Shown: piece by piece, positions 649 to 46,205 of the stretch
Layout of the letters: each line of letters begins with the position of its first letter
Position numbering within the stretch: the first letter of the stretch is position 1
Virus record (IMG/VR): IMGVR_UViG_3300025769_000151
Coordinates: 1-54,593 of that record
Direction: 5' to 3' (one strand)
Length of the DNA: 54,593 nt
Origin: a virus
Lineage: Duplodnaviria; Caudoviricetes
The notes under the pieces: model-generated
The model's input: only the letters and a program-made list of their open reading frames with translations
Told to the model about the DNA's origin: nothing
Database searches by the model: none
Translations under genes and position numbers: made by a program

Positions 649-3600
649 TGGCTATTGATAAACTGACACCTCGTTATCTGAACTTGGATGACGACGAGCG
701 ATTGGTGCAAGCTGTCCAGATGACAGATGCCCTGAATGTCGACATCTCTGTGGACGACGAAGAGGATGCTGGTGTCATCAAGCAGGCTCAGGGAAACAGG
801 CAGGGACGTGCTAGGAACGTTTCTGACAACCTACCCTCAGGGGTTAACCATGTAATCTCCAGCATCAACTACGACGCAGGAGGGGTGGTATTCTACTACG
901 TCTGGAACAGCGATAACGACCACGGCGTCTACATGTACGACACAGCGCAGCACGACTTCGTGAAGTTGTACGAGAGCAGCGCACTTGCTTTTGAGAAGAA
1001 CTCTCACATCCAGAGCGAGGTTGTGAAGATGGGTAACGGGGACCTCCTGTTGTACTTCACAGATGGTAACACTGAGCCAAAAAAAATAAACGTCAGCAGG
1101 CTTCTATCGGCTTCCTACGACGCATCCATTGATACGTCTACCGTTGCGTTGAATGCAATTACTGTGTGCAAGAGGCCACCAATGAGGCCACCAACCTTTA
1201 CCTTTGTACAGGCTGGCGAGGCTGAGACCGTTGTGAATAGAATCGTCGACAACGTGTTTCAGTTCGCCGCCCAATACGTCTACGTGGACGGAGAGGTGTC
1301 TGCCATCGGGCCTTACTCGAAGCTTTCGTATTACGAAGACCACTTCAACCCAACAGGCACCATGACCGACCTGTACCTGACGCAGTTTGATGCGATTGAG
1401 GTCTCGGTTGAAAAGGCTGGGCTGAACGACGACACTGGCGCGAATGTAGACGGAGATGTAAAAGCTGTACGGTTCCTTGCGAGGAACGGAAACACTGGGG
1501 CTTGGCATGTCTTTGGTGAGAGGAACACCTCTTACAATAGCACCGTTGCACAAGACACCTTTACAAACTCCAAGGCCTATAGGATTATTGGTGACGCAGA
1601 AACAAACAAACTGTTTGACAACGTGCCCTACAAGGCTACGTCTCTTTGCGTTGCTGAGAACAGGCTGTTCTTCGGGAACTACGTGGATGGTTACGACGCC
1701 ACGACTTGGCCAAATGTAATTAAGAAGAATGCAGGCCTGAGCACCCACTCTTTCCCTGTGGAAACAGGCATTGAGGAACTCGCGGTCAACCTAGGTGGCG
1801 ACGACTTCCCCGCTAACTATCTAAACGAGATAGAACATGCCTACAGGTCTCTTGAGACGCACAGGCAGCAGTACGAACCATTTGTAGCGATGGAGCCTCG
1901 TTCTGAAAATAGTCTTGCACAAGACCCAAACCTCGGCACTGCAGATAGCTTGGGTGGGTACTTCGTGCAGGCGAAGGGCTCTAACTCCCCCGACGACTCG
2001 GGTGAGTTTTTTGGCGGAGATACAACCAAAGTGCCTTGGGCTATTTCAAGTTCGGGTGACACAGGCGAAGCCGGACCAATCGAACCCAACATGGCTTGGG
2101 GTATGGGCAACTCAAACCGAATCGAAGTCGTACTTGACATGGACCAAATCCCTGTTGATGGATATGGTGTTTCTGGTCAGGTAGGTCTTACTTGGGCTGT
2201 TGAAGGTTCAAGGGCTATGATTATCCCAAACTACCGAAACCAAACGGGAAAGATAGAGTACGATAGAAGGTTCAAACCATTCCCCGAGGGCACAGAAACT
2301 GGCTCAGACAACTCTGTACAGACGGAGAAGTTTAAGCTTTTTCACGGGGGTGACTCAATCGCCTCAGCCGATGACCTTAACCTAGACGAAAATGTTTATG
2401 GATACTTCAAGGTCTGTGGTATTGCAGGTATCAACTGGGGTTCCGGAACTGACCAGAGTGTAACGATTGACACTCAAGCCGCCATGACAAGGACCGAGAT
2501 TGCTCAGGCTCTCGCTGACAAAATTATGGAACAGCAGGTGGGCTTCGCTGTAGGCGGAAACGCTTTTGCTACAGCCCACGGAAACCACTACAGGAGAAAC
2601 GTCGCTTTGTTCGCTACGATTGACAGAAATGACCAGTCAAAGATGTGCAGGTACCTCCTGACGAACAATGGCAACAACAACGGTCAGGCGATGAACTTTA
2701 GAGCTACTACGGCTTTTGTAGTAGGCGCAGGTGGCACGAGTGTTCAACTGCACGTTCAGTATCAGCTCGACTCTCTGAACATGACATTCAACAGAGTTGC
2801 ACATGCAGGACCAGCAATTCGTGTCACAGGAGCGGGCGGTGTTGGTGGGCTTCAGCAGCAGTTGCAGCCTCAAGGGCTAGACACGACAACACCCCTTGAG
2901 GACGGTAACATCGTCTTGGAGATGACCAGAACTGGGAATGGCATTGACGGGGCTGAGGGCGGAGGAGGAGCAGAGGACCTGTACCATAGTGCAATTCTAG
3001 ACTGGAACTCTAGCGAAAAGGAGGGGAATATATCTTTCACCACTAGCGTATCTAGCGCTGGCGACATCGGAGTCAACAGGCTCACGTTTAGGTCAGGCGC
3101 CCACCACCCACTTGGCGTCGTCTTCTATGACCACAGAAACAGAAGCAGCAATGTAAACCTGCTTCCAGAATCTTACGTCCCGTTCTCAGGTTCAGCAGAC
3201 TCACCCGTAGGTAACGGCAGCGATGTCCTTGTACCTTACGACATCGACGTAAACTTCCGCAAAGAGTTCATTCCGGACTGGGCTGAGAGGTATCAAATCG
3301 TCTACGCAGGCAACTCACTCTTCTCGGACAGCTTGACTGTGACTGTTGGTGAGGCCTTGGTCGCGGATATGTCGAAGGTTGTCATTAGAGACCCGTCCTT
3401 CAGTGATGGGGATGACGTCGACGCAGACTCTCTCGAGGAGGGTGTAACTGACGAAACCAACTTTGGCAACTTCCCCAGCATGGCGGTCGCTGAGTCTGTG
3501 GGTATCATCAACAATGCCATCTACCTCCCGATGAGATTCTTCGAGGGTAAGGTTGACTCTTACAAGGAGTCCAAGAGCGCAAGACTTAACTACGAGTTTA

Positions 3601-6425
3601 GGCCGGGCGACAAGCTTAGGATTATTAGCTACGCTGCGGCTGGACAGGATGATGTCTTGTCTAACGCCTTCCCCAAGAACTACTTCTTTGACGTGCTTGG
3701 CTACAAGTACTTTGAGGCGAACTCCGACCAAAACGTATTGGTCCTCCCCAACCAAGAGGACGGAAACTTTACAGCAGAAGGTGAGTACCGCCGCTCTGGA
3801 TGGATGTTGATTCTTAGGGGTGACAACGTGCAGTACCCGGGCTTTAGACCTGATGATGTTAGAAACCAGAACTCTACTGTCAACCGATGGGGTCAAGACG
3901 TCCGCGTTGAAATCCTTAGGCCGCGTGTTGATGTTGTCGATGAGGACAGAGTCTACTACGAGATTGGGGAGTCATTCCCTGTAGGTAAGGATTCAAAGCA
4001 GCCAAATAGTTACAACAACGAGTTCCCAGTCGTCTTTTCTCCCGGTAGTGAATCCAACGGGACGTATAGGGTTAAAACAATTCAGCGCTTGTTTAGGGGC
4101 GATGAGTTCTATGCAATCAAGCTTGCCACCGAAGCCGACGTGGCGGCTGACAATGGGGATAACCCACTGAACTACTTCTTTGGATTTAACGACCCACCTA
4201 CAGGCTTGGGTGGCGACCCGCTCAATGCGAACGACGACGCCGAGTCAAACGTGTACACGGTAGGCAGGGTTCTAGGAAGATTTTACGACCAATCACTTGA
4301 CTACGAGTATTACGAGTACGAGGTTTTTGAAAGTAAGCCGTACACAGGTTCCGGTTCGCTAGGACCCAGCCCGGACCCGTTCCAAATCTTTACGGAGCCG
4401 TTTGCAGCAAACCCTGAGGGATTCCCAATCAGCTCCACGGCCGCCATGTGTGAGTTCGTGATGAACAACAGATTCGTCAATGTGCATCTTACCGACCAAG
4501 GTGACACGTACTTCAGGCAACGAGACATGCGTACCTCTGCTGTCATCGGAGGCTCCTATGACCCGGGCCAGCTGACCAATGCTACGGATGCGAACTTCAT
4601 TCGTAGAAACATCGAGGACCCCGGGTTCAACGACTTCTTGCCGTCTACGGTAACTAGGAACTATCACTTTGGAAGACCACACATCTTTAGCCCTGAAGAG
4701 CAGACCAGTGTGCGCTCATCTTCTGTAACGTACAGCGACCCCTACGCATCTGACGGGGAGGTATTGGCACTGTCCAGCTTCAACCCATCAATGTTCCCAT
4801 TCAAGGACTACAACCTCAGGTACGGCGGTATTCAGAGAATGTTTGACATGGGCGGCGGCATCGCCATGCTTCACGAGAGAAAGGTGTCATCGACTCCTGT
4901 AAGCAAGGACTACTTGTCTACAGCAGATGGCGGCATGATGATTGCTTCCAACAAAGTTCTTGGCACCGAGCGGTACTACGCAGGGGAGCACGGCATCGGC
5001 AAGTACAGCAAGGGGGCGGTTTCGCATGGCGGGGCCATCTTCTTTGTGGATGTCGAGATGGGTACTGTGTGTATGCTTGGTGGCAACGGCATTCAGGTCA
5101 TTAGCGACAGGAAGGTTGACTCTTACTTCAAGGATAGGCTTGAGAGAGTTCAAGGCGCGATGATGTACGCGGCCACGCTGATTGGTGTTCACCCCGACAA
5201 CAAGGAAATCATCGTAGCTGTCAACAGCAGAGCCAGAAGAGACATCCGTGTCGACGGCATAGCCTATGGTAGAAACCTTCCTGTGGATGGGGACGACAAC
5301 ACCAAGTTCGACCTGACGATGATGCAGAAAGTCTACAAGATTGCAGGCTCTCCTCTGGACATTGTTAACGAAAGACAAAACTGGGAAGACGTATTTATGG
5401 ATTGGGGCGAAGCAGGTAAGGGTGTAGTGCTTGTGGACCAGCCACGCGAGCTGGGCTACGTGGACGCAGGCCTTTCCGGCAAAGTGACCCACGACTTCCT
5501 TGTGACAGATAAGGACAGCAACTTTGCTGCTAAGATGACTCAGGGCATTCGCTCTCGGCTTGGAACACTCGACGAGACAGCGGGCGGGGCTAGGGATAGC
5601 GGGGGCTCAGGGCAGGCTTCAAAGGGCACCGTGGCAGGTGCCGAGCGAGGCTCCATCGGGTACAACTATGAGTCCAAGGTGTGGACGTCCAAGTACTCGT
5701 TTGAGCCAGAGGACATCGTCAGCATCTTCGAGGACTTCCTGACATTCAGCAGCGGTTCTCCGTGGAGGCATGATGACTTGGGTACGGTAAACAACTACTA
5801 TGGCGTGCAGTACACGTCTGTTGTGGAGGCCATCTCAAAGATGAATCCTTCTATGGTGAAGCTGTACAAGGCGCTGAGCCTTGAAGGTAACTCTGTATGG
5901 TCTGCCGAGCTGTCTAACTCTGACCAGTCATCAACCATTACGGTTGACATGTGGAAAGACCAAAACATTGACGGTACACTCAGGGCTGGCGATGGATTCA
6001 GAGAGGGTATGCTGTACTGCAACATGCCGGGTGACACCAGCACGTCAAGCCATCTCGATGAGATTACGATTGGTGAGGTGACCGACGTAACCACACCGGG
6101 AGAGATTAAATTCAAGGGCAGGGTCAACAACATCCCGTTCAACTCAGGGGACAGGCTGTTCCTTGCCGATGGTACAGACACCACCCGAACAATCACAAGT
6201 GTCAAAGACAGAAACACCCTCAACGTCAGTGCAAACACTGGCATCAATGTGGGTGACATCCTTGTCGCGCAGAGCAGGGCAGACGCATCGCACATTGCAG
6301 GTGACCGCCTGAGAGACTACTATCTAAAAATTAAACTGACAAACTCTTCTACCACGAAGGACGAGCTCTACGCCATCAACGCGATTTACGAGCGCTCACG
6401 CCTTCATAACGACAGAGTTAACTAA
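648..6425 (+). CDS. Large tail stabilisation/nozzle protein (crAss-like muzzle, P22 gp10 analogue) with insertions
   Basis: 1925 aa. Starts LNLDDDERLV..DALNV; contains YFTDGNTEPKKINV, FQFAAQYVYVDGE.SA, FDNVP.KA...ENRLFFGNYVDGY and a C-terminal KLYKALSLEG...GDRLRDYYLKIKL, motifs I recognise from this class of beta-propeller tail proteins. Confidence 0.7.
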   Translation: MAIDKLTPRYLNLDDDERLVQAVQMTDALNVDISVDDEEDAGVIKQAQGNRQGRARNVSDNLPSGVNHVISSINYDAGGVVFYYVWNSDNDHGVYMYDTAQHDFVKLYESSALAFEKNSHIQSEVVKMGNGDLLLYFTDGNTEPKKINVSRLLSASYDASIDTSTVALNAITVCKRPPMRPPTFTFVQAGEAETVVNRIVDNVFQFAAQYVYVDGEVSAIGPYSKLSYYEDHFNPTGTMTDLYLTQFDAIEVSVEKAGLNDDTGANVDGDVKAVRFLARNGNTGAWHVFGERNTSYNSTVAQDTFTNSKAYRIIGDAETNKLFDNVPYKATSLCVAENRLFFGNYVDGYDATTWPNVIKKNAGLSTHSFPVETGIEELAVNLGGDDFPANYLNEIEHAYRSLETHRQQYEPFVAMEPRSENSLAQDPNLGTADSLGGYFVQAKGSNSPDDSGEFFGGDTTKVPWAISSSGDTGEAGPIEPNMAWGMGNSNRIEVVLDMDQIPVDGYGVSGQVGLTWAVEGSRAMIIPNYRNQTGKIEYDRRFKPFPEGTETGSDNSVQTEKFKLFHGGDSIASADDLNLDENVYGYFKVCGIAGINWGSGTDQSVTIDTQAAMTRTEIAQALADKIMEQQVGFAVGGNAFATAHGNHYRRNVALFATIDRNDQSKMCRYLLTNNGNNNGQAMNFRATTAFVVGAGGTSVQLHVQYQLDSLNMTFNRVAHAGPAIRVTGAGGVGGLQQQLQPQGLDTTTPLEDGNIVLEMTRTGNGIDGAEGGGGAEDLYHSAILDWNSSEKEGNISFTTSVSSAGDIGVNRLTFRSGAHHPLGVVFYDHRNRSSNVNLLPESYVPFSGSADSPVGNGSDVLVPYDIDVNFRKEFIPDWAERYQIVYAGNSLFSDSLTVTVGEALVADMSKVVIRDPSFSDGDDVDADSLEEGVTDETNFGNFPSMAVAESVGIINNAIYLPMRFFEGKVDSYKESKSARLNYEFRPGDKLRIISYAAAGQDDVLSNAFPKNYFFDVLGYKYFEANSDQNVLVLPNQEDGNFTAEGEYRRSGWMLILRGDNVQYPGFRPDDVRNQNSTVNRWGQDVRVEILRPRVDVVDEDRVYYEIGESFPVGKDSKQPNSYNNEFPVVFSPGSESNGTYRVKTIQRLFRGDEFYAIKLATEADVAADNGDNPLNYFFGFNDPPTGLGGDPLNANDDAESNVYTVGRVLGRFYDQSLDYEYYEYEVFESKPYTGSGSLGPSPDPFQIFTEPFAANPEGFPISSTAAMCEFVMNNRFVNVHLTDQGDTYFRQRDMRTSAVIGGSYDPGQLTNATDANFIRRNIEDPGFNDFLPSTVTRNYHFGRPHIFSPEEQTSVRSSSVTYSDPYASDGEVLALSSFNPSMFPFKDYNLRYGGIQRMFDMGGGIAMLHERKVSSTPVSKDYLSTADGGMMIASNKVLGTERYYAGEHGIGKYSKGAVSHGGAIFFVDVEMGTVCMLGGNGIQVISDRKVDSYFKDRLERVQGAMMYAATLIGVHPDNKEIIVAVNSRARRDIRVDGIAYGRNLPVDGDDNTKFDLTMMQKVYKIAGSPLDIVNERQNWEDVFMDWGEAGKGVVLVDQPRELGYVDAGLSGKVTHDFLVTDKDSNFAAKMTQGIRSRLGTLDETAGGARDSGGSGQASKGTVAGAERGSIGYNYESKVWTSKYSFEPEDIVSIFEDFLTFSSGSPWRHDDLGTVNNYYGVQYTSVVEAISKMNPSMVKLYKALSLEGNSVWSAELSNSDQSSTITVDMWKDQNIDGTLRAGDGFREGMLYCNMPGDTSTSSHLDEITIGEVTDVTTPGEIKFKGRVNNIPFNSGDRLFLADGTDTTRTITSVKDRNTLNVSANTGINVGDILVAQSRADASHIAGDRLRDYYLKIKLTNSSTTKDELYAINAIYERSRLHNDRVN

Positions 6426-6430
6426 CTTTG
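6423..6430 (+). promoter_or_regulatory. Bacteroidota-type -7 promoter box TAACTTTG
   Basis: Matches TAnnTTTG; 4 nt upstream of the ATG at 6435. Confidence 0.6.
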
Positions 6431-6434
6431 CAGT

Positions 6435-7778
6435 ATGGCCAACTTTAAGTACGGTAATCCATATACGCCCGGCACAGCGGAGTTCTATGCCTATCAAAAC
6501 GCCGATGTAGCCCCTGACCTTGGGTTCAGCATGGCTCCCAGAATTGCTGGCCCTAGGCCTGAGCTGGGCCTCGCTCCATACGGACCGGGCTATGCCTCAA
6601 CGTACCCTAACCCGGGCGGGGTTGACAGCGGTCAAGACTTGCCCATGATGTACGGGTATGAAAGCACCATCGGCGTACCGCAGGCTCAAGTTGACCCAAT
6701 GTCAATCAGCCCCGGAGGGACAAACGAAATCGTTGGCGCACCTCAGACAGACTACTCAGGTGGGTTTGATACAAGCGCAATGACTTACGCGGACCAAGGC
6801 ATGTTTGACGACCAAGGCGGATTCCTTGGGGTTGACTTCAACATGGATGGTCAGCGCTCTGAGATTGGCGCACCAGTCACAGAGACCCCACCCGAGCTTA
6901 GGTCGGGAGACGCCACAGGCACGGCAGCTACAGGGACAGCAGCGGCAGCCGCAAGTACTGAAAGCGAAAAAGGAGGAGACGGTTTGGCAAAGGCTGCAGG
7001 TGCAGCCAGTGGAGTTGGTCAGATTGTAGGTGGCGTTACCAACATTGTCATGGGGGCAAGAGCCCTCAAAGATGTAGACATCGCAGGGGCAGAGGCAGGC
7101 GTCAGAGACGCTTACGCCACCCGCCCCGGGCTCGGCACACCCGTCGAGTTCTACAACATGCAGAAGGAGGCCTACGACCAAAGGCTTATGGCCATGAGGT
7201 TGGAGGACATTAACCGTGGGCTGGCTACTAACGTAGCGGCAGCTCAGCAGTACGGAGCTCGTGGACTGGGCGCAACATTGGCCGCCACAGCCCAAGCACA
7301 ACGCGCTCAACAGCAAGAGGTTCTGCAGCAGCAGAGACTTCAGACCAGCGCACTTGGCACTTTGGCTCAGGCCAGAGAGCGTGAGATTCAGAGAAGAGAG
7401 CAGCGTGCTACCTTCGACATCGGTATGGCTTACGACAATCTCAAGGCAGAGCAGGCTAGAGAGCAGTACGCTAGACAGCAAATTGCTCAGGGTATCGTAG
7501 GTACAGCATCAGGCATCGCAAGAACCGCTGTCACGTTCGGCGCAGAACAAGGTGCAAAGGTTACACCGGGAGAGTTTTCTCACGACACCAACCCCATTGA
7601 CATCGTACAGGAGGGAGCTAAGATTGGAGAGATGACAGGTGGCGAGTACATCTTCAACCCACAGCAGGCTGGCCAGATGGCACGCGAAGCCAAGAAGGGC
7701 AACTCACCACTGCATAAGTTCGTTCGCAAGACCCTGAACAAGTTCCACAAAGACGCAGAGAAGTATGAAGGCAAGTAA
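6435..7778 (+). CDS. Putative internal virion/ejection protein
   Basis: 447 aa. Acidic P/G-rich N-half, glycine-zipper segment (AAGAASGVGQIVGGV), Q/A coiled coil and C-terminal GEFSH...GEMTGGEYIFNP domain. Position after tail genes. Confidence 0.55.
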   Translation: MANFKYGNPYTPGTAEFYAYQNADVAPDLGFSMAPRIAGPRPELGLAPYGPGYASTYPNPGGVDSGQDLPMMYGYESTIGVPQAQVDPMSISPGGTNEIVGAPQTDYSGGFDTSAMTYADQGMFDDQGGFLGVDFNMDGQRSEIGAPVTETPPELRSGDATGTAATGTAAAAASTESEKGGDGLAKAAGAASGVGQIVGGVTNIVMGARALKDVDIAGAEAGVRDAYATRPGLGTPVEFYNMQKEAYDQRLMAMRLEDINRGLATNVAAAQQYGARGLGATLAATAQAQRAQQQEVLQQQRLQTSALGTLAQAREREIQRREQRATFDIGMAYDNLKAEQAREQYARQQIAQGIVGTASGIARTAVTFGAEQGAKVTPGEFSHDTNPIDIVQEGAKIGEMTGGEYIFNPQQAGQMAREAKKGNSPLHKFVRKTLNKFHKDAEKYEGK

Positions 7779-9567
7779 GAGAAAATTCAATCAAGGCGGA
7801 TTCTACGAGAACAAAACAGACTTTGTTCTCAAGCCCACTGACTTCGCAGCTCTCGGGGCCAACTACGACCAGTTGACCCTGAAGTACATGGACGCCCAGA
7901 AGAAGGCAAAGCAGGAGCAGGACAAGAAGGCTAGAGAGGGCATCAGAGCATTCGAGAGCCGTACCAAGGTGATGGACCGCCACAACGGCGTGCTTCAGGC
8001 TTCGTACGACATCTTTGAGGAGGCTCGTATTGCGGCTATCAGCAACCCTACTGCGGCAAACAAGCAAGCAGCTGATGAGGCGTACAGCCAGTACTCCGTC
8101 ATCAAGGAGAACGCTGTGGCTATTACGGCTGACTACCAGAAGGAGGTCAACGATTTGAACAAGGGCTCTCTCGACTCAAACCTTCTCGGCACGAGAGCAC
8201 AGGCTGTGACTGAGGCCAAGTCCTTCAACCAAGAGATTCCCTTCCAAGTAGTGGGAGGTAGAATCATGGTTCCGGGAGCAGACGGTGAGCCTGTAGAGTA
8301 CCTGCAGTCTACGTTTGTGAACGAGGGTGTGTTCGGTCAGAACGGAAGAAACTTCATTGCCTCGCGTCGGGCGCCGGGTACGGACTTCATGTTCGCCCCG
8401 CTCAGCGACACCTACGCTAAGCAGCTCGAAGGGGATAGCGACATCTTCGCCATGGTCGGTGACAGAAAAAAGGGCATCAACCCTGAGTACGTCGGTAGCC
8501 GTGTTGCCCAAAGACTCCGCACTGACTTCATGGCCAACCCCGCTGCATTCGTGGACGCTGTGTCTACGCAGTACGGCGCGTTCTCTTACGGAGTGGAGAA
8601 CCTGAATGTCGACAACATGAACAAGGCTACTGCCGACTACGGTGGCATTGACCTGTACTCAGGCAATAAGCTCTTGACAGACTGGGAGCTTGTGTACACT
8701 GAGCCTACAGAAGAGAACCCAGAGGGCAAGTTCAACGTTGCGTTCCCTAACGTAGATGACGCTGTCAGAAGAGACGGCCTAAGCCCACAGACCGCAGCAG
8801 CCATCAAGAACAGGCAGGAGGCGCTGAGCTATCAGATTACCAATACCGCTGACCAGACGTTGTTCAAGCTGAAGAACCAGTTCCAGCCATCACCTCAGGG
8901 TGGAGGCCTTAGCTTCGGTGGAGGATTCAAGAGCCAGAACATCCCGTCGTTCAGAGACACTGACCTGTACACCACTGTTGGTGACAAGCAGCAAACGACA
9001 GGTCAGAAGGGTAGCATCCTTGACTTCCGCAACGCTCCACTCAACTTCCGGTACAAGGATACCAACTCGAAGATTACCAACATCCAGTTCGACGAAAACA
9101 AAAACATCGTTGCGTTTGACATCGAGTCAAAGCCAATGCGAGATGCTTTGGTCAAGGCCTATGGTGAGGAAATCGACAGCTTGGACAGACAGCTTGATAG
9201 AATTACGCTTGGACTGCAAGAGCCGGGAATGCTTTCAGAGGAGAAAGACAGGCTCAAACAAGAGCAGAGCGAGCTCAACCAACAGAGAGACACGTTTGAC
9301 AATGCCCGTAAGTCCATGAGAAGAAAGGATTCTAAGCTTGTCATCCCGAGAACAGGGCTTGGTGGGCAGGAGGGTTCTAACCTCTACATGGCTGGTAACG
9401 TCGCTGACATCCCAACCTTCGATGAGATTCTGAACTCACTGCTTGCTGGTGAAAGCCAGTTGATGGCGTTGATTGCGAAGGAGACGGGGGTAGACCCTGC
9501 AGTCTTCAATGAGGAATACTTCGAGCAAGCTCCGGGTGCAGGTGGGGTCGATGCCTCACAATACTGA
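7765..9567 (+). CDS. Putative internal virion/cargo protein
   Basis: 600 aa, helical/coiled-coil character, between the tail genes and the giant protein. Begins with a KFNQGG motif. Confidence 0.5.
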   Translation: MKASKRKFNQGGFYENKTDFVLKPTDFAALGANYDQLTLKYMDAQKKAKQEQDKKAREGIRAFESRTKVMDRHNGVLQASYDIFEEARIAAISNPTAANKQAADEAYSQYSVIKENAVAITADYQKEVNDLNKGSLDSNLLGTRAQAVTEAKSFNQEIPFQVVGGRIMVPGADGEPVEYLQSTFVNEGVFGQNGRNFIASRRAPGTDFMFAPLSDTYAKQLEGDSDIFAMVGDRKKGINPEYVGSRVAQRLRTDFMANPAAFVDAVSTQYGAFSYGVENLNVDNMNKATADYGGIDLYSGNKLLTDWELVYTEPTEENPEGKFNVAFPNVDDAVRRDGLSPQTAAAIKNRQEALSYQITNTADQTLFKLKNQFQPSPQGGGLSFGGGFKSQNIPSFRDTDLYTTVGDKQQTTGQKGSILDFRNAPLNFRYKDTNSKITNIQFDENKNIVAFDIESKPMRDALVKAYGEEIDSLDRQLDRITLGLQEPGMLSEEKDRLKQEQSELNQQRDTFDNARKSMRRKDSKLVIPRTGLGGQEGSNLYMAGNVADIPTFDEILNSLLAGESQLMALIAKETGVDPAVFNEEYFEQAPGAGGVDASQY

Positions 9568-9575
9568 TAATTTAG

Positions 9576-9583
9576 TATTTTAG
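9576..9583 (+). promoter_or_regulatory. Variant -7 promoter box TATTTTAG
   Basis: One mismatch from TAnnTTTG; same 4-nt spacing to the ATG (9588) as the boxes at 6423 and 21785. Confidence 0.45.
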
Positions 9584-9587
9584 CAGA

Positions 9588-12500
9588 ATGAACGAACAGG
9601 CACTACAGGACGCCTACACTCTGTTCCAAGGAGCAGGATACGGCAAGTCGTTTGACGAGTTTGTTAATTTGATTAACACCAACGACCAAGCCCTCGGGGA
9701 CGCCTACCAGTTGTTCCAAGACAGCGGCTATGGCAAAAGCCTCGATGAGTTCAGCACCTTGATGGGTGTAAAAAAAAAAGACGATACGTCGGTATCGGTT
9801 GCTCAGCCGGAAGAGGTTTCTACGGAATCTACCTCAGCTACGGCTCCTCCACCGGAACAAGAGTCTGGAGATTCGGATTCAGTTCTAGCCCAGCCTGAGC
9901 TAACACAGCCCGAGCTTACAGAGCAACAACTCGCTGACCTTCAGCGTGCGGCACAAGCCATCGACCCCAACGTCGAGACGCAGACGCCATACATGCAGGT
10001 CAACGACTTCAACGCATCGCTGCCAAGGTTTGGCACTACTGTTGAGGACGCGATTGCCGCTGTTGCTGACGCCCCTAATGAAGCGCGACGCCTAGGGTTC
10101 GAGACTCCGGAACAGCAAAACACTTTCTTTGAGGGTGAGCTTGCGGACGTTCTTCTCGACATGGATGGCATCGAGAAGGAGAAACTGTCTAGGGTTGCAG
10201 GTGGAGAGTCTTTCTTTATGCAGGAAGAGAAAGCCAATGCTGCACTGGCTGTAGATGAGGAGTTTCAGCGCCTTGCTGAAGAGTCCGCTAAGGGGCTTAT
10301 GCTCATTGAAGATGACATGACCAAAATCCTTACTGGTCAAGTTGTAATGGCAGGCGACCTCACTGTCGAAGACAGAGTCAAAGACTTGAAGGAGCAGTAC
10401 ACTCAGGAGCTTCCGCCCGAGTTCAGGGAGCGCGTAGAGCGCATGGACCTATCTGAGTTTGCCGACTACACCGTGAAGAACGCTATGGACAGGGACTTTG
10501 CTGCCGCACTGGTAGGCATGTCTAGTCTTGAAACGTACGACCTTGAGGCCAAGGTTGGCCGAATGTCGGGTGCATACATGGCTCTCGGGAACGCGGAAGA
10601 GCTTGAGGAAGGCAGCTACTACGGCAAGAGACTAGGTATTTCTTGGAAGGACTTTGGTATTGCAGACTACAAGGGCCTGATGTTTGGATTGGGCAAAGCC
10701 CGTGTCGAACAGGATGACTTAGCAATCGCCAAGATTGATTCTGTGATTGACAACTACGGAGCCGCTGGTATGACTGAAGAGCAGTACGAGGAGTTCGGCT
10801 CACTTGTTTACGACCCAATCGTCAGCAAAAAAATCACGGAGATGTCTGACGAGCCGCTCAGAGATTTGACGTTCTTCAATCCTGAGCAGGCACGTAACCA
10901 TCGTATTGAGCTTGGTAAAACCATGTTTCAGTCGATTGCTCCTGATAATTTGCGAGAGCTGAGAAAGAGTCTTGCTCGTCGTAAGGAGGACAACATTGAC
11001 TTCGCTGAGCTTTACGCAAGGGACTACAACTACAACGGAGGCTTGAAGGACACCATGTCTCAGCTTCTTGACGCTAGAGTTCTTACAGAAGAACAGGCCA
11101 AGAAGAGTGCTTGGGGCAACTTCCTTGATGGAGACTATGAGGCTTGGGCCGTTCAATCTTTTGGCTTTACTGCAGACCTCCTTCCAGACATGACTAAGGC
11201 TGTGGCCCTGAACTACATCGGTGGTCCCAACCTTATGGCCGCTGCCTTTGGACTTGACGCTGGGTCTTCTACCATTGGTGAGTACGCCTCTAGGCCAGAG
11301 GTAAGCGGGGTTGAGGCAATAGAGATAGGATTCCGTGCGGGTATGATTGAGGGTGGGGTTACCAGAATGTTCCCCGGCCTTCAAAACCTGCAGGCTGGAG
11401 CGGTCAAGAAGGGTATCGACCTGACTAAAGACATTGTTTCTGCATCTAGCAGAAAGGCTCAGAGAGAAGCCATCCGCAAGGGGGTAAAGAAAATCTTTGC
11501 CTCTGAACCCGGTAGAGCTATAAAAGACTGGGGCAAGGAGGGTCTTGAAGAAGGAACTATCGCATTCCTCGACCAATGGAACAGAGTTACTTCAGAGGTT
11601 GCGTCAGGCAGAATGAATCCGCAAGAGGCGTTTGATGAGTACTGGAACATGGGCGCTATCGGAGACGCGTTCTGGGCAGGATTCCTCGGCGGTGGTGTGG
11701 GTGCATCTCCCTTTGTCGCGGCTCGGGGTATGAGTTCCGTAGGTTCTAAGTTCACACTCTTTGATAGACTTGAGCTCAAGGATAGAAAAACGTACCTCCT
11801 TGAACAGCTCGAGAGAGGCGACCTTACTGACGACCAGAAAAAAGACTTCCGTGCTCAGCTTACCAAGGTTCACGAGGACGCCAACAGGCTGGCTCGAAAG
11901 GACGTAGAGTTCTATTCTCAGATGGAGAACGAAGACATGACGGAGATTATCCGGTTGAATCAGGAAATTTCCAAGAAGCGTCAAAGAGCAAGAAATCTTG
12001 CAAGAGCAGAGGGGCGGACGAATCAGACCCAACTGGATGCGCTGGCCAATGACGTGCGCAGTCTGATGACTCAGAAGCTAGAGATTGAGAACAAGTACGA
12101 GGCAGCTAACGCTGGATTCGACATGGACGTAGAGGCGCAAACTCGTAACAACAAGGAGGTCGAAAGACTTGTGGACGACATCATGAATGTGGACCGCAAG
12201 TGGGACGACGTAACAGAAGGGCAGGGCAATACAGGTGCGGGTAAGATTGTCTTAACTGACAACAACTCAGACACGATTCTATCTCGTCTTCTCGCTCAGG
12301 GCATCAAGGGTACTAGGTTCGCCACAGCAGAACAGATTCGTGACGGCATCGTGGGAGCGTTCAACATGGCCAAGGCAATCAAGGCAGACAACCCTGACGC
12401 CGAGGTTATCTTGGTCAACAGCAAGGAGGCGTTTAGGCGCGAGGTTGCTAAGGCAGGGAAGGTGTCGCCAAGCAAAGTGAAGCTTTCTCGAGGGATGCAC

Positions 12501-15500
12501 ATATCTAGGGACGGCGGTACTGTAGTTCTCTATGCCCCAGCTCTCAAGTCAAACACAGGATACCACGAGGGATTTCACCAATCGGTGTACCGTCAGATGC
12601 TCAAGGATGGTGTAAATCGTGGCGAAGCTATGATTCGTTTGGCATCTGCCTTGCGCAGAGGCATGACCAAAGCGCAACTTGCCAAGTACGGCAACTTCGT
12701 AAACCAATACGGTAACGTATCTGAGGCGCTCAAGGCTGAGGAGTTTTTGGCTGAGGTGTTTAGTGACATGGCCGATGGAGAAATCGACATTCAATTCCAC
12801 AAGGGAATCGTAAGCGGTTTTGCAAGTTTTGTGAAGCAAGCGCTTAGCGCAAAGGGGGTCAAGATGACCAACACACCTGTGCTCCAAGACGTAGCCAACG
12901 GTCTTCGTGACGCAGCAGAGTACTTCTCAGAGGGCGAAGGAGGCGCTCAGGGGGCCCTTGGTGCCGTTTTAGAAGCATCAGGTAGGCTCAGACCCGGATT
13001 GGGTATAGAAGGTGTCTTAAACAGGCGCGAATTGCGTCGTCACAGAAACGCTCAGACCAGAGCTCAGGCGCATCAGCAGTCAGATGACCTCGATTCTACC
13101 GTAAAGGCACAGGACAGACTCAACGAACCCAGTGTTCTGGGTGACTGGACCAAGGATGCACTGACGTTTGATGCCAATGGCAACGTCAAGCTGCTCCACG
13201 TGGGGCCACAGAACTTAGAGGGTGGGTTCATTGACCCGCGTAGATTCGGTCAGCAGCCATACACCACCGACCAGCGTGGTGACAAGGTTGCGATGTTCTA
13301 CGCCAAGCCTGAGGACCAAGAGAGCATGGTGAGAGGCCGGGCCTACGAGGCTACGGTGCCGCCGCAAATGCTGTACGACTTGTTCAAGGACCCACTCAAC
13401 TTTTACGACACAGCACTCAAGGCGTTTAGGGATGCAGGTAACGTCGTTGCTTTCGATGGCAACAGACAGGCAGAGTGGATTGGGTACGAGGCTCGCAAGC
13501 AGGGCTTCGATGGCATGGTTACCAAGTGGCGCAACACTGCGCGTGTGGACATGTGGGTTCCTGTACGTCCCGATGAGAACGGCGGGTACTCACCTGCTGG
13601 TACCAAGATGACAGAGGCCGACATCTCCCCTGCCAAGAACAACGAATACGCTGTGGCTGCTATCGCAAAGAATATGCGGGAGGCAATCGCGGCGCACAAG
13701 GAGAAAGGCACGGGGGTGGACGGTCAGACAACACCACTGAAAGAGGAGACCATCCAGCGCATGATGGACGAAGGCACTACGTTCTACGTCGGCAACAACA
13801 GACTCAGCTCGGGCGTCGTGTCCTACGTGGACAAGGACGGCTACATGGGTGGACTCACTAAGCATCCAGACGTACCACTTCGTGGGGTGCAGGCTGAGAT
13901 GCTGCGTAAGCGTATCGAGGATGGGGGTAACCACCTCGAGTGCTTCGACACCTACCTTGTAAAAAACAACATTGCTGCAGGCTTTGTCCCTGTGGCTAGA
14001 ATCCCATTCGATGTAGATAGGGCTCCCGAAGGATGGGACGCACCTAACTCAACCCTGCGTGACAAACCAGACCTAGTGTTCATGGCGTACGACCCTGCGG
14101 CTGCTGCTGATGCAAAGCCCGGGGACGGCGTCAGGGCCAAGTCCTACGACGAGGGTCTTGCCATGGCTCGCTCCAGAGGGGAGGGTAATCAAAGCACGGG
14201 CGACCTTCTTAAAAGTCAACTCACTTCGTTTGATGAAGGCGATGCTGCAGCTATCAAGGATAATGACGGCGAGGCCATTGGCACCTTTTATGAGCTTCTC
14301 AACTCTAAGGCCAGAAAGCTAGGAGGGGTTTCTTCCATCTACAGATACAGAGGACTGATGGCGGGATTCAGTCAGGGAAGAATGGTTTACGTTGACGAGC
14401 AAGTCACCAAGCGCCCCAACGGAGAACCAGACAGACACATTGAGTTCGTGTTCAGGCCTCTTGACACTGGCAGAATACTTGACGAGCAGCTTGCTGGAAG
14501 ACAGCCGGGCGAGGATGCAAGGCCAATCCCACAAAAAATGAGGGAGGGGCGCGTGATTAAGCTTGATGAGTGGTTTGTGACTAAGGCCTTAAACGAGGAC
14601 TTCAAGCCTATCAAGGGAGCTGACAACAGAGGAAGCGGTCTCGGCACTCGGTTCATGAATTTAGTTATGGAAACTGCAGATGAGCTTGACATTGACATCG
14701 AGCTCATGGCCTACCCTACAAAGAACTATCAAGGTACAGAGCAGCAAAATCGAAAGGCATCTGACAGGCTGAAGGCTTACTACCAAAAGTTTGGATTTGT
14801 TTCTAGCAGCAAGTACAGCGACACGATGGTTCGTGTGGCTCGCACAAACCTTGACCAGCTTAGCCCTGCAGAAGACCAAGCCACTCAAGAGCTTGCACTT
14901 GGCAAGGACGGAGTGCCGGACATCGAGTTGTTTACCTTCTTCTCTTCTGCTGTAGAAAGGCTGCAAGACTTCAGGGAGGAGCAATCCATGACTCGGGAGG
15001 AGATTGAGCAAGCAAGGGCAGAAGATAGGGAGTTTAACGCGCAGTTCCAGTTTAAGCCGGAGCCAGACGAGAAGTACCTCCAGACAAGAGACAAGGAGAT
15101 GAAGGCTGACGACTTGGCCGAGCTCGACGTACTGTTCCCGGGCATGACCCCTGAGCAGATTAGAGAGGAGTACATCGCTGCGTTTGGACCCACTACCAAA
15201 GCTCAGGCCATCGAGGCCACCATCCAGTTCGATACAGACACGGGTCGGAAGTGGACGGTGCGTAGAAAGTTTACGGACGAGAAGCACGTCAAGAACTTCA
15301 TCAACTACATTGAGAAGAAGAAGGGCTACACGTTCGACGAGAGATGGAATCACGACACGCCGCCTGATGTCGACCCACCTGAGGTTACTGGAGTCACCAA
15401 GGCACAGCAACTGGCGGTTGACGCCATCAACTCAGAGACACCGGGTGAACTGACGCAGAGCATTCAAGTAGCTCGCGCACTCAACAAGTTTGCAGGTGAG

Positions 15501-18500
15501 CCTGTGAAGAGTGAGGGCGAGATGATGACGCGCTTCCTCAACAACGTGTACGAGGAGGCCGGATTCTACCTGAACCAAAAGGATGCACGCACTGGCGGTA
15601 TCACGTGGTACACCGAGGACATTCAGGAGGCCAAGAAGAAGATGGGGATTATGTTCCCTGCTCTGCAAGGCGAAGCCATGGGTAGCATCGGCACAGCGTT
15701 GCTTGCTGTACTCTCTCCGGGCAACAGCCCTATCGGCAATATGACTACGCTGGCTGCCGTACTGCGCAACACGCCTGTTGACCAAATGCGCTCAGGCAAC
15801 TTCTCCCGCAACTGGGGAGGAGACAAGATGAGCTTCGTTGACAAGAAGGGCAAGTCAGTAGCGTCAGGCAGAGTTGTTAAGGAAACCAAAACGCACTTCA
15901 TCGTTCAGGGTGTAGATGCCTTGGGGCGAGACAGCAAGTACAGAAACGGACAGAACTTCCGCGTCAAGATTGCCAAGAAAGACATGAAGGCCGGATACCC
16001 CAAGCCTACTGGCTACACCACTAGGGGTAGGATTGTGGCCAAGCAGCTTGACAAGATTCAGTCTTTGTTCGAGAGATTTAAGACACCTGAGGCTGTGGTT
16101 AAGTTCCTTACGACAGACCAGCCAATCGGGGTGCTCAGGGAGTTCAGCAAGTCTGTGCCTGACAGCAAGGGCAAGGTGAACAAGAACCCTGCACCCGGTC
16201 GACGCAAGGGGGCGTACATCTTCGGAGAGAAGGTGGGTAGCTTCTTCCTGAACATGGAAGGCTTGGGTGAGTCGCTGACATCTGACCTGTGGTTCAACAG
16301 AACTTGGAATAGATACGCAGGCACTATGATTGACACGGTCAACGGCAAGGAGACCATCGTCGAGGTTCCTCGTAGCGAATCGGAGCGTAGGCTTCAGGCC
16401 GAAGCTGTAACTCAGGCAGCCAATGAGCTTGGACTGACTACTGCAGAACTGCAGGCAACCATGTGGTACTTCGAGCAAGAGCTGTGGAGGAGCATGGGGG
16501 CAAACACACGGAGTGAAAACTATGCGATGGCGATTGACAACGTCGCCTCGAGAATGGACCTAGACAATGATACAAGACAAAGACTTGCGGCAGCTGGAGT
16601 CAACCTTGACGCGGCTGAAGCAAAACGGGAAACTGCCGTCAGTAGAGCAGATTCTAAAGGCATTGAGAAATACCGCGCCCCGCAAGAGCCCGGCACAGAA
16701 ATAAAGGCCCAACCGATAACCTCAGTCACCGACCCAGATGGCCCGAGGTTTACGGACTTCAAGGGTGTGTGGGGAGCTATCGCTAACGCGGGCATCCTCA
16801 TGCACGGCACCCCAGCGAACTTTGCCAAGTTCGACAACGACCTTGCGTTTGGACCTACCATCCCCGGACTCTACGGCAACGGCACGTACCTGACTAGGAA
16901 TGTAGACAAGGCCGCCATGTATGGCAAGAACGTCATCTTCATTGACGGTCAGGGCCTGAACCTAGCCAACATGTACAGCTTTAGGCAAGGTGCTAGAGTT
17001 ACCACTGCACTCAATAGGCTGAACCAACTAGGACCACAGAGCTACGAAATACACAAGAAGATTGCCATGGATGCCCGTAGAGGCATGGCTCAAAGACCCA
17101 ACTCTCCACTGGGATTCAGGTCTGAGGTTGGCAAGAACCCTGAGATACTTGTAGAAAGGATTATTGCCGAGACGGTGAAGCAGATGCAGGATACAAACAA
17201 CCAGCTTGGCTCCGGCAGAACAACCATCGAGACCCTGCGTAACGTCATGTACGGCGACAACGGCAAGCCGGGTGTTGCTGTCAAGGCGATGATTGACTTC
17301 CAAAGAGAAGTTAACAGATTGAGATACGAGGGCATGGACCCTGTAGAGGCGCAGATGAAGGCACTGGGCGATGGCCTAGGAAACAAGGATGCCATTGACG
17401 ATGCCATGGCGATTGCGAGATACACGTTTGCAGAAATCGTACGTCAGGCAGGATTCGATGGCTACTACTTCTCCGCCGAGATGGACAGGGGTTATCAGGG
17501 TATTGAGCGCAGAGCCAAGGAGGGCAAGCTTGAGACAAGAGAGCAGCAGGAGATGAAGCTCGAGGCGCTGGAGATTGCAGGCACCGACGGAGGTTTCGCA
17601 CAAGAAGCTATCATCGTCAACACCGACAGGCTCAATGACTTGATTATCCCAGCAGAGAATGTAATCGCTGCTGCAGTCAGTAGGATTACCGCAGAGGAGA
17701 GCACGATTGACCAAGGCGGACAGATGGGCAACAACGGTGTCATCAACGATGGTATGCGTGACTCCCAGAATCTCCTCAAGGCCCAGCCATTGCAAGGATT
17801 CCTCGACGACTACGACGCCGACATGGACACCCTACGCGGTGAGAAGCCACCAGCCCGTATCGACAGAGAGGCAGAGATGGGTAAGGTGCAGCGTGCTATG
17901 CTCGGCATCATGGAGTTCGTGTACGACAAGTTCTACAGAGCCATCCGCTACCAGCGCGACATCGAGAAGGCTATCGGTGGCAGCGTGATGCAGGAGCAAG
18001 ACTACGCCATGGCGCTGTCACTGCTTGACGGTAAGGCTTCGCGTAGGTTGCAGAGTGTGGACATGTTCATGGAGGACTTGGCTGCAGTCATGAATAAGTT
18101 CGGCATCTCGCACAAGGAGCTGAGCGACTTCCTGTATGCTATGCACGCAGAGAATCGTAACGCTGTACTGCGCGAGCGATTCGGTAACAAGAAGAAGTCA
18201 ATCACTGACTCTATCGCACAGCAAGCAGCACTCATCAACGATGAGAACAGCTCGGATGCTGTCAAACGCAAAGCCTCCAAGAAGCTTGCTGACCTGCAGG
18301 AAGAGCTGGCTGACGTAGAGGCTAGACTTGAGAACGACAACTTCTCAGGTAAGACCGACGAGCAGGCACGTAGGGAGATTGAAGAGCTGGATGGTGAGGG
18401 TATGCGTCAGGCCTACGACATGGTGATGGAGTTCCAAGCAGAGACCCGCAAGCTGATTGTGGAGTACGGAATGGAGACGCAGGCTACTGTCGATAAGCTC

Positions 18501-45378: not shown

Positions 45379-45618
45379 ATGGAAAATTTAATCAGGAAAA
45401 TCGTCATCGGTCCTAACCCGAAGGATGCGATGGCGTACTACGTCGGCATGAAAGCTGGCGCAGGAAAGGTTGTTCTCATCGAGGAGGATGACCGCGCTAT
45501 GTTCAAGTACAACATTCGTAGGTACAACATCTACACTCAGGACAGTGAATCGTCCTACCTGTGGAAGACTGTGGAGAACACCCCAGTCATTGTTGAATAC
45601 GATTGTAACTTTGAATGA
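45379..45618 (+). CDS. Conserved hypothetical protein
   Basis: IRKI.IG...KDAMAYYVG...LWK....P..VEYD.NF; precedes the GroES-like gene. Confidence 0.65.
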   Translation: MENLIRKIVIGPNPKDAMAYYVGMKAGAGKVVLIEEDDRAMFKYNIRRYNIYTQDSESSYLWKTVENTPVIVEYDCNFE

Positions 45619-46205
45619 AGGCGCTGTATCACTTCGTGGTGAAGCTTGAGAAGACTCATCACGACACCATCGAGCTGGACAACGGCACGGAGCTCTACGT
45701 AGACCCTAAGTGGAAGGAGTTCGAGCGACGCGTCATGTACGGTGAGGTGACGTCAACCCCAGTCAAGTACGACGTGGATGTCAAGCCGGGAGACACTCTG
45801 TTCTTCCACCACCACGTAGTCATGTCTGATGCCCTGAAGATTCAGGTGGACGACGAGGACAGGTTCATTGTAGGATACGACCCAGACAACACCCTTGGCT
45901 GCCATGCGATTGCTTACCGCAGCAAGGAGACTGGTGAGCTGCACATGCTCGCGGACTGGGTGTTCCTGCAGCCACTCGAGGAGGACGAGCCAGATGAGAA
46001 CGAGATTATCGTGGTAGACCTCAAGCCCAAGACACACCTCAAAGCAAAGGTATTCTGCTGCCCCAAGGACATGATTACTCAGGGTGTAAAAGCAGGAGAC
46101 ATCGTTGGGTTCAAGAAGAACCGAGACTACGAGATGCGTTTGGAGGATGACACCACCGTGTTCCGTATGCGCTCAGAAGAAATGATGTATGTCGAGGAAG
46201 CCTAA
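45615..46205 (+). CDS. GroES/Cpn10-like protein (two tandem domains)
   Basis: FVVK...GEV..TP....VKPGDTLFFHH and DWVFLQP...GVKAGDIVGF...MRSEEM. Confidence 0.6.
   Translation: MKALYHFVVKLEKTHHDTIELDNGTELYVDPKWKEFERRVMYGEVTSTPVKYDVDVKPGDTLFFHHHVVMSDALKIQVDDEDRFIVGYDPDNTLGCHAIAYRSKETGELHMLADWVFLQPLEEDEPDENEIIVVDLKPKTHLKAKVFCCPKDMITQGVKAGDIVGFKKNRDYEMRLEDDTTVFRMRSEEMMYVEEA

Follow-up and report, generated by a model that had tools for sequence, protein, structure and literature searches.

The locus analysed lies near the start of a very large open reading frame (ORF) in a 54,593-nucleotide phage sequence (IMG/VR record IMGVR_UViG_3300025769_000151), referred to below as the window. The features discussed, all on the plus strand, are the following.

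9588 to 20714, plus strand: zero-frame giant ORF of 3708 aa, a large polyvalent-type protein, probably virion-packaged and ejected.
9588 to 9779, plus strand: N-terminal 64 codons, shared by the zero-frame product and the inferred -1 product, with two ~29-aa repeats predicted as four helices and ending in KKK.
9746 to 9748, plus strand: TGA stop in the -1 frame, 10 codons upstream of the last A of the run, which bounds the stretch where entry into the -1 frame must happen.
9770 to 9779, plus strand: run of ten A's (A10), the putative slip site, read GTA AAA AAA AAA followed by G and holding two overlapping in-phase A_AAA_AAA heptamers.
9779 to 9898, plus strand: -1-frame ORF of 39 codons plus TGA (9896-9898), encoding a conserved basic Gly/aromatic peptide (core YGIxx...GxW.FG) predicted as a three-stranded antiparallel sheet.
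19758 to 20300, plus strand: LPD38 domain of the zero-frame product (coordinates computed from aa 3391-3571), given as context and not part of the slip site.

The A10 and its conservation

The A10, flanked by T and G, is the longest homopolymer of the window, where about 0.03 to 0.05 such runs per strand are expected from composition. It is read as GTA AAA AAA AAA GAC (V61, K62-K64, D65), directly after the two repeats, which a repeat HMM detects with i-E values of 1.6e-14 and 4.9e-14. The 35 zero-frame codons that follow form an acidic S/T/E/P stretch with eight NCG codons, whereas the -1 frame is open from AGA at 9779 for 39 codons, and the +1 frame for 35 codons, to TAG at 9886-9888. All the sequence statements of an earlier note on this site were thus confirmed. 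The run goes against the codon usage of its own gene, in which AAA is used 44 times and AAG 187 times, and GTA represents 41 of 213 Val codons.

Conservation excludes a chance occurrence. All 119 homologous gene starts that we collected have the MNE start, and 97 of them are distinct: 86 have A10, 4 A9, 2 A11 and 5 no run. Among the 60 distinct loci found only with a pattern that ignores the site, the corresponding figures are 52, 4, 2 and 2. In the 92 loci with a run, G follows it in 88 and its end phase is conserved in 88, although it sits at 20 different offsets (181 to 386 nt). The genes concerned vary in their AAA/AAG usage: 10 of 17 other genes tallied hold at least 1.5 times as many AAA as AAG codons. 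Loci are related by descent, however, so that these counts are not independent events.

The giant protein itself carries the Pfam domain LPD38 (PF18857, E 4e-35, 122.1 bits against a cutoff of 27) at aa 3391-3571. Its C-terminal ~950 aa matches PHROGs 14770, 616 and 10691 and is about 30% identical to the giant proteins of Stx-converting and Vibrio podophages. A homologue, phi24B gp47, was found in virions by mass spectrometry and is proposed to be ejected; with the identity just given, this is the only basis for inferring packaging here. Searches of named phages by blastn or tblastn with the first 500 aa and the first 64 aa of the giant protein found nothing meaningful, and neither the two-repeat N-terminal domain nor the -1 module was found in named phages by tblastn.

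Selection on the -1 frame

The earlier note proposed that a short isoform of about 100 aa is produced by a shift at the run, and suggested aligning homologous gene starts to look for conservation of the run and of an alternative-frame peptide. The outcome is positive for the -1 frame. In the group of close homologues, the synonymous fraction of differing codons in the N-terminal domain is 0.473 in frame 0, against 0.079 in frame -1 and 0.124 in frame +1, a normal coding signature. In the overlap, the values become 0.176, 0.361 and 0.133, respectively, so that synonymous changes move from frame 0 to frame -1. The most variable site in the overlap is zero-frame codon position 2. Among 153 pairs of 18 representatives, frame -1 gives the top local-alignment score in 103, frame 0 in 22 and frame +1 in 21 (mean z values of 3.24, 1.10 and 0.93, respectively). 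An HMM built from 28 -1 peptides of the first sets scores best in frame -1 in 58 of 60 held-out loci. In a held-out set of 46 loci, 26 reach E<1e-3 in frame -1, and none does in frames 0 or +1. The +1-frame peptide also read in the earlier note is therefore not supported. Two family members (L013 and L142) have no -1 ORF at all, indicating that the product is dispensable in some lineages.

Could the conservation be explained without any recoding? The run and the sequence behind it might serve a function at the nucleotide level, such as translation slowing by AAA Lys codons, an RNA or DNA element, or an antisense terminator, the peptide being a by-product. Indeed, iterated AAA codons reduce protein output (Koutmou 2015), a 6-bp hairpin followed by the T10 scores as terminator-like on the minus strand (9797 to 9782), and about 100 nt after the run are nearly identical in four loci whose flanks differ. 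However, the hairpin is not conserved, no Rfam match was found in positions 9000 to 10500, and variation in the overlap has a three-base periodicity in register with frame -1 (for example, TAY GGN has entropies 0, 0.44, 1.14, 0, 0, 1.35). Moreover, the peptide motif persists in sequences too diverged to align as DNA, and behind different slip sites. We consider this explanation very unlikely. A separate small gene translated from its own start codon is all but excluded, despite the conservation of the -1 ORF: in 20 of 20 representatives the -1 frame is open only 4 to 20 codons upstream of the run, and contains no ATG, GTG or TTG between its upstream stop and the motif.

The same peptide is found behind other sites. 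Two homologous loci without the run, L015 and L132, have an in-phase G_GGA_AAG, a 6-nt spacer and a 9-bp stem-loop (-15.3 kcal/mol), and keep the -1 motif. Two further loci, L147 and L148, have unrelated N-termini, G_GGA_AAG and the motif in frame -1, and L148 also has a downstream structure. In these four loci, the -1 frame opens only 1 to 3 codons before the heptamer. A search for more loci of the L014/L015 type in viral contigs returned only the same contigs. A DNA pattern for the motif hits at least 120 viral contigs, and in 79 of 80 examined the motif is in the -1 frame of the longest ORF, 50 to 110 codons from its first Met. The sites of these 80 contigs are A10 (27), A9 (8), A11 (3), GGGAAAG (12) and other (30, including 5 with A_AAA_AAG). 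This tally, like the entropies given above, selects on the -1 motif by construction; the pairwise alignments, held-out profiles and synonymous fractions are the non-circular tests. The -1 peptide profile does not significantly match the -1 ORFs of two public records, Elemovirus gp72 and MW202828.1, which are leads only.

AlphaFold2 (AF2), given 48 aligned -1 peptides, predicts three strands with a pLDDT of 93.1, and insertions fall between the two conserved arms. This agrees with the beta-hairpin character suspected in the earlier note, but it is a prediction only, and AlphaFold can be overconfident on short beta peptides. Foldseek gave no hit for this model at E<=0.001, and a wide VIA-align search gave a best Z of 3.9, gasdermin-pore hairpins appearing among many ties at Z 3.5 to 3.7, which is background level and not used as evidence. 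We also modeled P0007, a short database protein comprising the N-terminal domain and the tail. Four helices are predicted (residues 3-16, 22-31, 33-46 and 52-59, pLDDT about 80), while the tail has a pLDDT below 50 without alignment depth. Foldseek found nothing in the PDB for this model, BFVD returned only unnamed members of the same family, and ESM Atlas scores of 0.85 to 0.87 to unnamed viral clusters were uninformative. A complex prediction with four copies of the short protein gave no answer (score 0.00), which is neither for nor against self-association.

Possible routes into the -1 frame

The explanation we favor, with fairly high confidence although there is no direct evidence of expression, is that the A10 is a programmed recoding site. 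Most expression would read straight through to give the 3708-aa protein, while a fraction would enter the -1 frame at the run, read 39 further codons and stop at 9896-9898. The result would be a 103-aa trans-frame protein made of the shared 64-aa four-helix N-terminal domain, a KKK-RR basic cluster, and a conserved Gly/aromatic/Arg-rich peptide that probably forms a small antiparallel beta-sheet (a hairpin in the short homologues). The comparison shows that the -1 ORF is under purifying selection, that it can be reached only from frame 0, and that the slip site is conserved. How the shift is made is inferred. Two routes are considered: slippage of RNA polymerase, adding one extra A in some mRNAs, and -1 slippage or sliding of the ribosome.

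At A-run sites, we lean slightly toward RNA polymerase as the main route. Run length is held at 9 to 11, never 7 or 8, among the 92 runs, including the 4 that have another phase (the other 88 share one phase by descent), whereas seven A's would suffice for the ribosome. This length is about that of the RNA-DNA hybrid (9 to 10 bp), and efficient slippage by bacterial RNA polymerase is reported at runs of 9 A or T (Atkins 2016). Downstream structure is weak at A-run sites (mean z -0.69, n=37) and stronger at heptamer sites (mean z -2.04, n=20; Mann-Whitney p=0.0018); in the window, there is only the non-conserved 6-bp hairpin, 2 nt after the run. In addition, the one metatranscriptome contig over the site has three extra A's and no other difference, while three DNA contigs from two sequencing runs have A10. 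This contig has a depth of 3.6, however, and its three extra A's keep the frame rather than shift it, and could be a reverse-transcriptase or PCR artefact.

Alternatively, the ribosome may be the main actor at the A10, by tandem -1 slippage of tRNA-Lys on A_AAA_AAA or by sliding on the poly(A) tract, RNA polymerase being at most a minor contributor. We regard this as possible, but somewhat less likely. The run is in X_XXY_YYZ phase in 88 of 92 loci, and two of the four exceptions read A_AAA_AAG in phase. Relatives without a run use classic ribosomal heptamers (G_GGA_AAG, A_AAA_AAG, G_GGA_AAC), or at least xxA AAG, all centered on a Lys codon. G_GGA_AAG and A_AAA_AAG are described as highly shift-prone in E. 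coli (Atkins 2016), and ribosomes slide on iterated AAA codons (Koutmou 2015). Furthermore, polymerase slippage would also give +1-frame products, and only the -1 frame is conserved. On the other hand, the A-run sites end AAA-G out of register for A_AAA_AAG, the better bacterial heptamer, and the other two exceptions (GAA AAA AAA AAT) keep A10 but give a poor ribosomal heptamer. Relatives that carry G_GGA_AAG or A_AAA_AAG plus a stem-loop instead of the run most likely use ribosomal -1 frameshifting.

A last scenario is that the run is a hypermutable DNA tract which, by replication slippage, switches the giant gene on and off within phage populations, short forms coming from A11, A8 or A9 genomes. 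Public assemblies do contain A8 and A9 variants, which shows that the tract is error-prone or variable at the DNA or sequencing level, and public protein sets hold short proteins that correspond to run-length variants: P0007 (-1 frame with two K), and P0002, P0006 and P0009 (+1 frame). One DNA contig ends just before the run, and several Elemovirus records begin at their A-run. However, all 92 assembled runs keep the giant ORF in frame, and the variants are singletons on 1.3 to 3.4 kb contigs, most of them giving the unconserved +1 frame, which looks like sequencing or assembly error. The short proteins equal to the fusion (P0007 and P0027, the latter giving nothing meaningful in named phages by blastn or tblastn) are singleton gene calls on short contigs as well, and not protein evidence. 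An on/off switch explains neither the purifying selection on the -1 peptide nor its presence behind non-repetitive heptamers, and we therefore tend to exclude it.

Related systems and implications

A close parallel is dnaX, in which a shift at a Lys/A-rich site that soon meets a stop gives a shorter product with the same N-terminus as the long one, by -1 ribosomal frameshifting at A_AAA_AAG in E. coli and by transcriptional slippage at a 9-base A/T run in Thermus thermophilus (Atkins 2016). Here, the shifted frame encodes a conserved 17-43-codon peptide of its own, and not just a stop, the site lies about 60 codons into a >3000-codon phage gene, and the gene family is unrelated. In the P3N-PIPO of potyviruses, a short conserved ORF hidden in another frame of a very long ORF, and recognizable by synonymous-site constraint, is expressed as an N-terminal fragment fused to a trans-frame domain, polymerase slippage at GA6 adding one A (Atkins 2016). 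That system belongs to an RNA virus of plants and depends on a viral RdRp, whereas the present genome is a dsDNA phage, the run is longer (A9-11), the trans-frame domain is a small basic element predicted as beta, and some relatives use ribosomal heptamers.

The G/GT tail assembly chaperones of phage lambda result from a conserved -1 frameshift, probably at the same G_GGA_AAG as in relatives here, in a phage morphogenesis or virion gene block, and give two proteins with a common N-terminus in a set ratio. In lambda, however, the shift extends the product and lies upstream of the tape-measure gene of a long-tailed phage, while here it would truncate a giant protein of a podovirus-like genome. 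There is no sequence relation to gpG or gpT, and no tape-measure gene was seen, the structural block having a crAss-muzzle-like protein and a P22-like portal family. In the Shigella type III secretion genes spa13 and mxiE, and in IS-element transposases, runs of about 9 A/T yield mRNAs with extra bases and a second protein form (Atkins 2016), but slippage restores or extends a frame in those cases, and here it would give access to a short conserved alternative C-terminus. Finally, the giant protein resembles the large polyvalent or ejection proteins of podophages (phi24B gp47, P1 DarB-like), yet no frameshift is mentioned in the preprint on gp47. Our literature searches found no description of this site or peptide.

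Function is inferred more weakly than recoding. The N-terminal domain shared with the giant protein may be an assembly or packaging handle, to which the short protein adds a cationic aromatic element, predicted as beta, that could bind a membrane or another virion component. The fixed ratio, membrane activity and role in stoichiometry proposed in the earlier note remain hypotheses. A more speculative and rather unlikely possibility is that the -1 peptide is a portable 'membrane-hairpin' module of a very large group of uncultured aquatic podophages, the short protein co-assembling with the giant ejection protein through the shared domain, and its hairpins oligomerizing into a beta-barrel-like anchor or pore in the host envelope during genome ejection. 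The slip rate, by RNA polymerase at A-runs and by the ribosome at heptamers, would then set the stoichiometry of anchor to giant protein, making it a recoding-built component of the podophage ejectosome.

On the practical side, the A-run explains split or truncated gene calls and contig breaks at this position. The site would add a new, strongly conserved recoding event to the short list known in dsDNA phages, which is dominated by the tail-chaperone frameshift, and would be a second natural case, after dnaX, where homologous genes reach the same trans-frame product either through a homopolymer run or through a heptamer plus stem-loop. It points to a small protein that gene callers cannot see (a GenBank relative annotates only the giant CDS), in phages that are common in marine and freshwater metagenomes. 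It would attach that small protein to the least understood virion component of these phages, the giant ejection or polyvalent protein.

The A10 run and its genomic context

The 54,593-base record is estimated to be 97% complete and has about 52% G+C. It encodes a terminase (PHROG 6681), a portal (PHROG 6547), a primase/helicase, Erf and an exonuclease, a 1925-aa virion protein with a crAss-muzzle C-terminal domain, and a holin. The portal is only 28-32% identical to those of Flavobacterium (Elemovirus), Cellulophaga and an uncultured freshwater podophage. Two other ORFs gave weak or borderline matches. The 1451-aa ORF at 38568-42923 has weak dockerin/EF-hand-like calcium-binding repeat matches near its C-terminus (Dockerin_1, 26.6 bits against a cutoff of 22.9) and no PHROG match. 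The 196-aa ORF at 45615-46205 has a borderline Cpn10 (GroES) match at residues 109-186 (21.9 bits against a cutoff of 21.1); the distant relatives MW202828.1 and Elemovirus encode GroEL/GroES.

The features analyzed here are the following.

9588-20714: zero-frame ORF of 3708 aa
9746-9748: stop codon closing the -1 frame upstream of the run
9770-9779: A10 run, read as GTA AAA AAA AAA and followed by GAC
9779 to 9896-9898: -1 frame, open for 39 codons and ending in TGA at 9896-9898
Up to 9886-9888: +1 frame, open for 35 codons and ending in TAG
9782-9797 with 9770-9779, minus strand: 6-bp hairpin directly beside the run, making a terminator-like hairpin plus T10

The 3708-aa ORF carries Pfam LPD38 near its C-terminus, and its last ~950 residues match giant-protein PHROGs. 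These residues are about 30% identical to the giant proteins of Stx-converting and Vibrio podophages, annotated as LPD5-domain or DarB-like. A recent preprint found one of these, phi24B gp47, in virions by mass spectrometry and proposes that it is an encapsidated ejection protein. By homology, the zero-frame product is probably a packaged, ejected polyvalent protein.

The observation of the earlier note, a run of ten A's at the end of two N-terminal repeats, is correct. The run is the longest homopolymer in the window, where 0.03-0.05 such runs are expected by chance. It follows two ~29-aa repeats, which AlphaFold2 predicts as four helices (pLDDT about 80). The gene uses AAG four times as often as AAA (187:44), and GTA for 41 of 213 valines, and the run is therefore not what codon usage would give. 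The second-longest run, an A8 at 1079-1086 (CCA AAA AAA ATA), lies inside the gene of the 1925-aa muzzle-like virion protein, and the -1 frame behind it is open for only 14 codons. As to the terminator-like element on the minus strand, its hairpin is not conserved in relatives, and no minus-strand gene lies nearby.

Four scans provided gene starts with the same two-repeat N-terminus: viral contigs were searched with patterns from the N-terminus; metagenome contigs were searched with a pattern that contains KKK, and is therefore biased for the amino acids but not for the codons; one contig came from a genome collection; and a viral scan with a degenerate N-terminal pattern ignoring the site gave 112 relatives, of which 80 were kept. 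All 119 loci have the MNE start, and 97 are distinct in their first 300 nt. Of these 97, 86 have A10, 4 have A9, 2 have A11 and 5 have no run; among the 60 distinct loci that came only from the site-blind scans, the numbers are 52, 4, 2 and 2. Since the loci are phylogenetically related, such counts overstate independence. The run sits at 20 different offsets, 181-386 nt from the ATG. It is followed by G in 88 of 92 loci and ends on a codon boundary in 88 of 92, while the four exceptions keep ten A's in another phase. Two binned contigs are labelled Alteromonas and Pseudomonadales, but we do not rely on these labels to assign a host.

The reading frame under selection downstream of the run

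In a four-way DNA alignment, about 100 nt after the run are almost identical, while the flanks diverge. Among ten close relatives, the synonymous share of differing codons in the N-terminal domain is 0.473 in frame 0, against 0.079 in frame -1 and 0.124 in frame +1. In the overlap, it is 0.176 in frame 0, 0.361 in frame -1 and 0.133 in frame +1. The most variable site in the overlap is zero-frame codon position 2, which is position 3 of frame -1. Among eighteen diverse representatives, the 25 codons after the run give the best local protein alignment in frame -1 in 103 of 153 pairs, whereas frame 0 wins 22 and frame +1 wins 21; mean z values against shuffles are 3.24, 1.10 and 0.93 for frames -1, 0 and +1, respectively.

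We then built an HMM from the 28 distinct -1 peptides of the first scans, and ran it on all three frames of loci it had not seen. Frame -1 scored best in 44 of 46 loci and reached E<1e-3 in 26 of them, and no locus did so in the other two frames. When 18 loci initially set aside, because the match began a few bases before the ATG, were restored, frame -1 was best in 58 of 60. Tallies anchored on the peptide motif are circular with respect to frame; of these we retain, for this purpose, only the three-base periodicity of variation (TAY GGN).

The core of the peptide is YG(I/F)xx-G-x-(W/Y)-(F)-(F/I)-G. In 48 aligned peptides, one Gly is invariant and one nearly invariant, and insertions fall between the two arms. 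The peptide is rich in Gly, Arg, Phe, Ser, Tyr and Ile, and has 1.7% acidic residues. Its mean net charge is +4.9; the same DNA in frame 0 gives an acidic linker with a mean net charge of -4.9.

The question arises as to how the -1 ORF is reached. In 20 of 20 representatives, the -1 frame is closed by a stop 4-20 codons upstream of the run, and contains no ATG, GTG or TTG before the motif. The ORF can therefore be entered only from frame 0, within a short stretch that contains the run.

Other slip sites and the possible mechanism of the shift

Five family members have no run. Two of these loci, L015 and L132, carry in-phase G_GGA_AAG, a 6-nt spacer and an identical 9-bp stem-loop (-15.3 kcal/mol), and they keep the -1 motif. 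A third, L014, has GCA AAG plus a stem-loop, and the last two, L013 and L142, have no -1 ORF. A profile of the -1 peptides searched against 1.84 billion proteins found three small proteins at E<=1e-3, all singletons on short contigs. One of them led to loci L147 and L148, which are long ORFs with unrelated N-termini, G_GGA_AAG at about codon 41, and the motif in frame -1.

A DNA pattern for the motif was also used; from its information content, about 36 bits, we estimate that only a few matches should be due to chance. In 79 of 80 loci, the motif lies in the -1 frame of the longest ORF, which has at least 300 codons within the locus in 60 of 80 loci, and up to 3579. The motif lies 50-110 codons (median 67) from the first Met. 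The slip sites of the 80 loci are A10 (27), A9 (8), A11 (3), GGGAAAG (12) and other (30), the last class including 5 with in-phase A_AAA_AAG, 1 with G_GGA_AAC, and many with xxA AAG. Interestingly, at heptamer-type sites (L015, L132, L147 and many of the loci L149-L228), the -1 peptide carries a Cys/Gly-rich stretch (C-x-C-x3-C-like) between the slip site and the aromatic motif. This stretch coincides with the G+C-rich stem-loop, and may be a by-product of the RNA structure or a metal-binding element.

Two scenarios are considered for the shift at A-runs: slippage of RNA polymerase and slippage of the ribosome. Several points are in favor of the polymerase. The length of the run is held at 9-11, matching the 9-10 bp hybrid and the roughly 9-base threshold quoted by Atkins (2016), whereas seven A's would be enough for the ribosome. 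Length is kept in the four loci where phase is not, although 88 of 92 loci share one phase by descent. A-run sites lack significant downstream structure (mean z -0.69, 6 of 37 below -2), while heptamer sites have it (mean z -2.04, 9 of 20 below -2; Mann-Whitney p = 0.0018, loci without a run or a canonical heptamer being left out). Finally, the only metatranscriptome contig across the site has three extra A's and no other difference, while three DNA contigs from two runs have A10. This last point is weak, however, as the contig has a depth of 3.6, the insertion is in-frame, and RT or PCR slippage is possible. Public protein collections hold singleton short proteins (P0002, P0006, P0007, P0009, P0026 and P0027) that equal the N-terminal domain plus the -1 or +1 peptide, called from short contigs whose A-run length differs from 10. 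These could be homopolymer errors or real variants; the run-length variants in public assemblies (P0002, P0006, P0007 and P0009) indicate that the tract is error-prone in sequencing or variable in DNA. Alternatively, the conserved X_XXY_YYZ phase, the exclusive use of Lys-codon heptamers in relatives, and the lack of any signal in the +1 frame, which the earlier note had also read as a possible peptide, all point toward the ribosome. We lean slightly toward the polymerase at A-runs, the ribosome remaining possible, and ribosomal -1 frameshifting is likely at the heptamer sites. Either route gives the same protein, so that proteomics alone cannot tell them apart.

The predicted product and its relatives

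If the -1 product is made, and if the three lysines are kept, it has 64 + 39 = 103 residues. AlphaFold2 with 48 aligned -1 peptides predicts three antiparallel strands (3-11, 14-22 and 27-35) with a mean pLDDT of 93.1. Short homologues have only the two conserved arms, that is, a hairpin. Structure searches gave only background-level matches, and a four-copy complex prediction gave no verdict. As to function, we consider two ideas most plausible: a membrane- or envelope-binding element of the ejection machinery, or a partner that uses the shared N-terminal domain during packaging of the giant protein.

Two public records show a similar arrangement. The uncultured freshwater podophage MW202828.1 has, at 741-12320 on the minus strand, a 3859-aa CDS annotated 'reticulocyte binding/rhoptry protein', with the same two-repeat N-terminus, an A11 run (CAA AAA AAA AAA G) and a 25-codon basic -1 ORF with a degenerate motif. 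Only the giant CDS is annotated, without a frameshift. The cultured Flavobacterium phage vB_FspP_elemoD_13-5B (NC_055855.1, 30639-41912, minus strand) has a 3757-aa 'structural protein' gene with an A10 run 169 nt from its start (GAA AAA AAA AAT), followed by a 43-codon -1 ORF rich in Gly, aromatic and basic residues, although the -1 peptide profile matches neither this ORF nor that of MW202828.1 significantly. All 68 Elemovirus records share this region at 96% identity or more, and several begin exactly at the run. This phage is a possible laboratory model.

We found no description of this site or peptide in the literature searched. The class of mechanism is well known, from dnaX, PIPO, lambda G/GT and Shigella spa13 (Atkins 2016). 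The present case stands out for the breadth of its conservation, the predicted fold of the trans-frame domain, and the interchange of run and heptamer sites. The module, a slip site plus a -1 basic aromatic peptide near the 5' end of a giant gene, is much wider than the family of this window. The segment upstream of the slip site (9588-9779 in the window) is very diverse across phages, with 45 different beginnings among 74 long ORFs in the loci L149-L228, while the -1 peptide behind it is conserved. This suggests that the peptide module has been kept or exchanged independently of the N-terminal domain.
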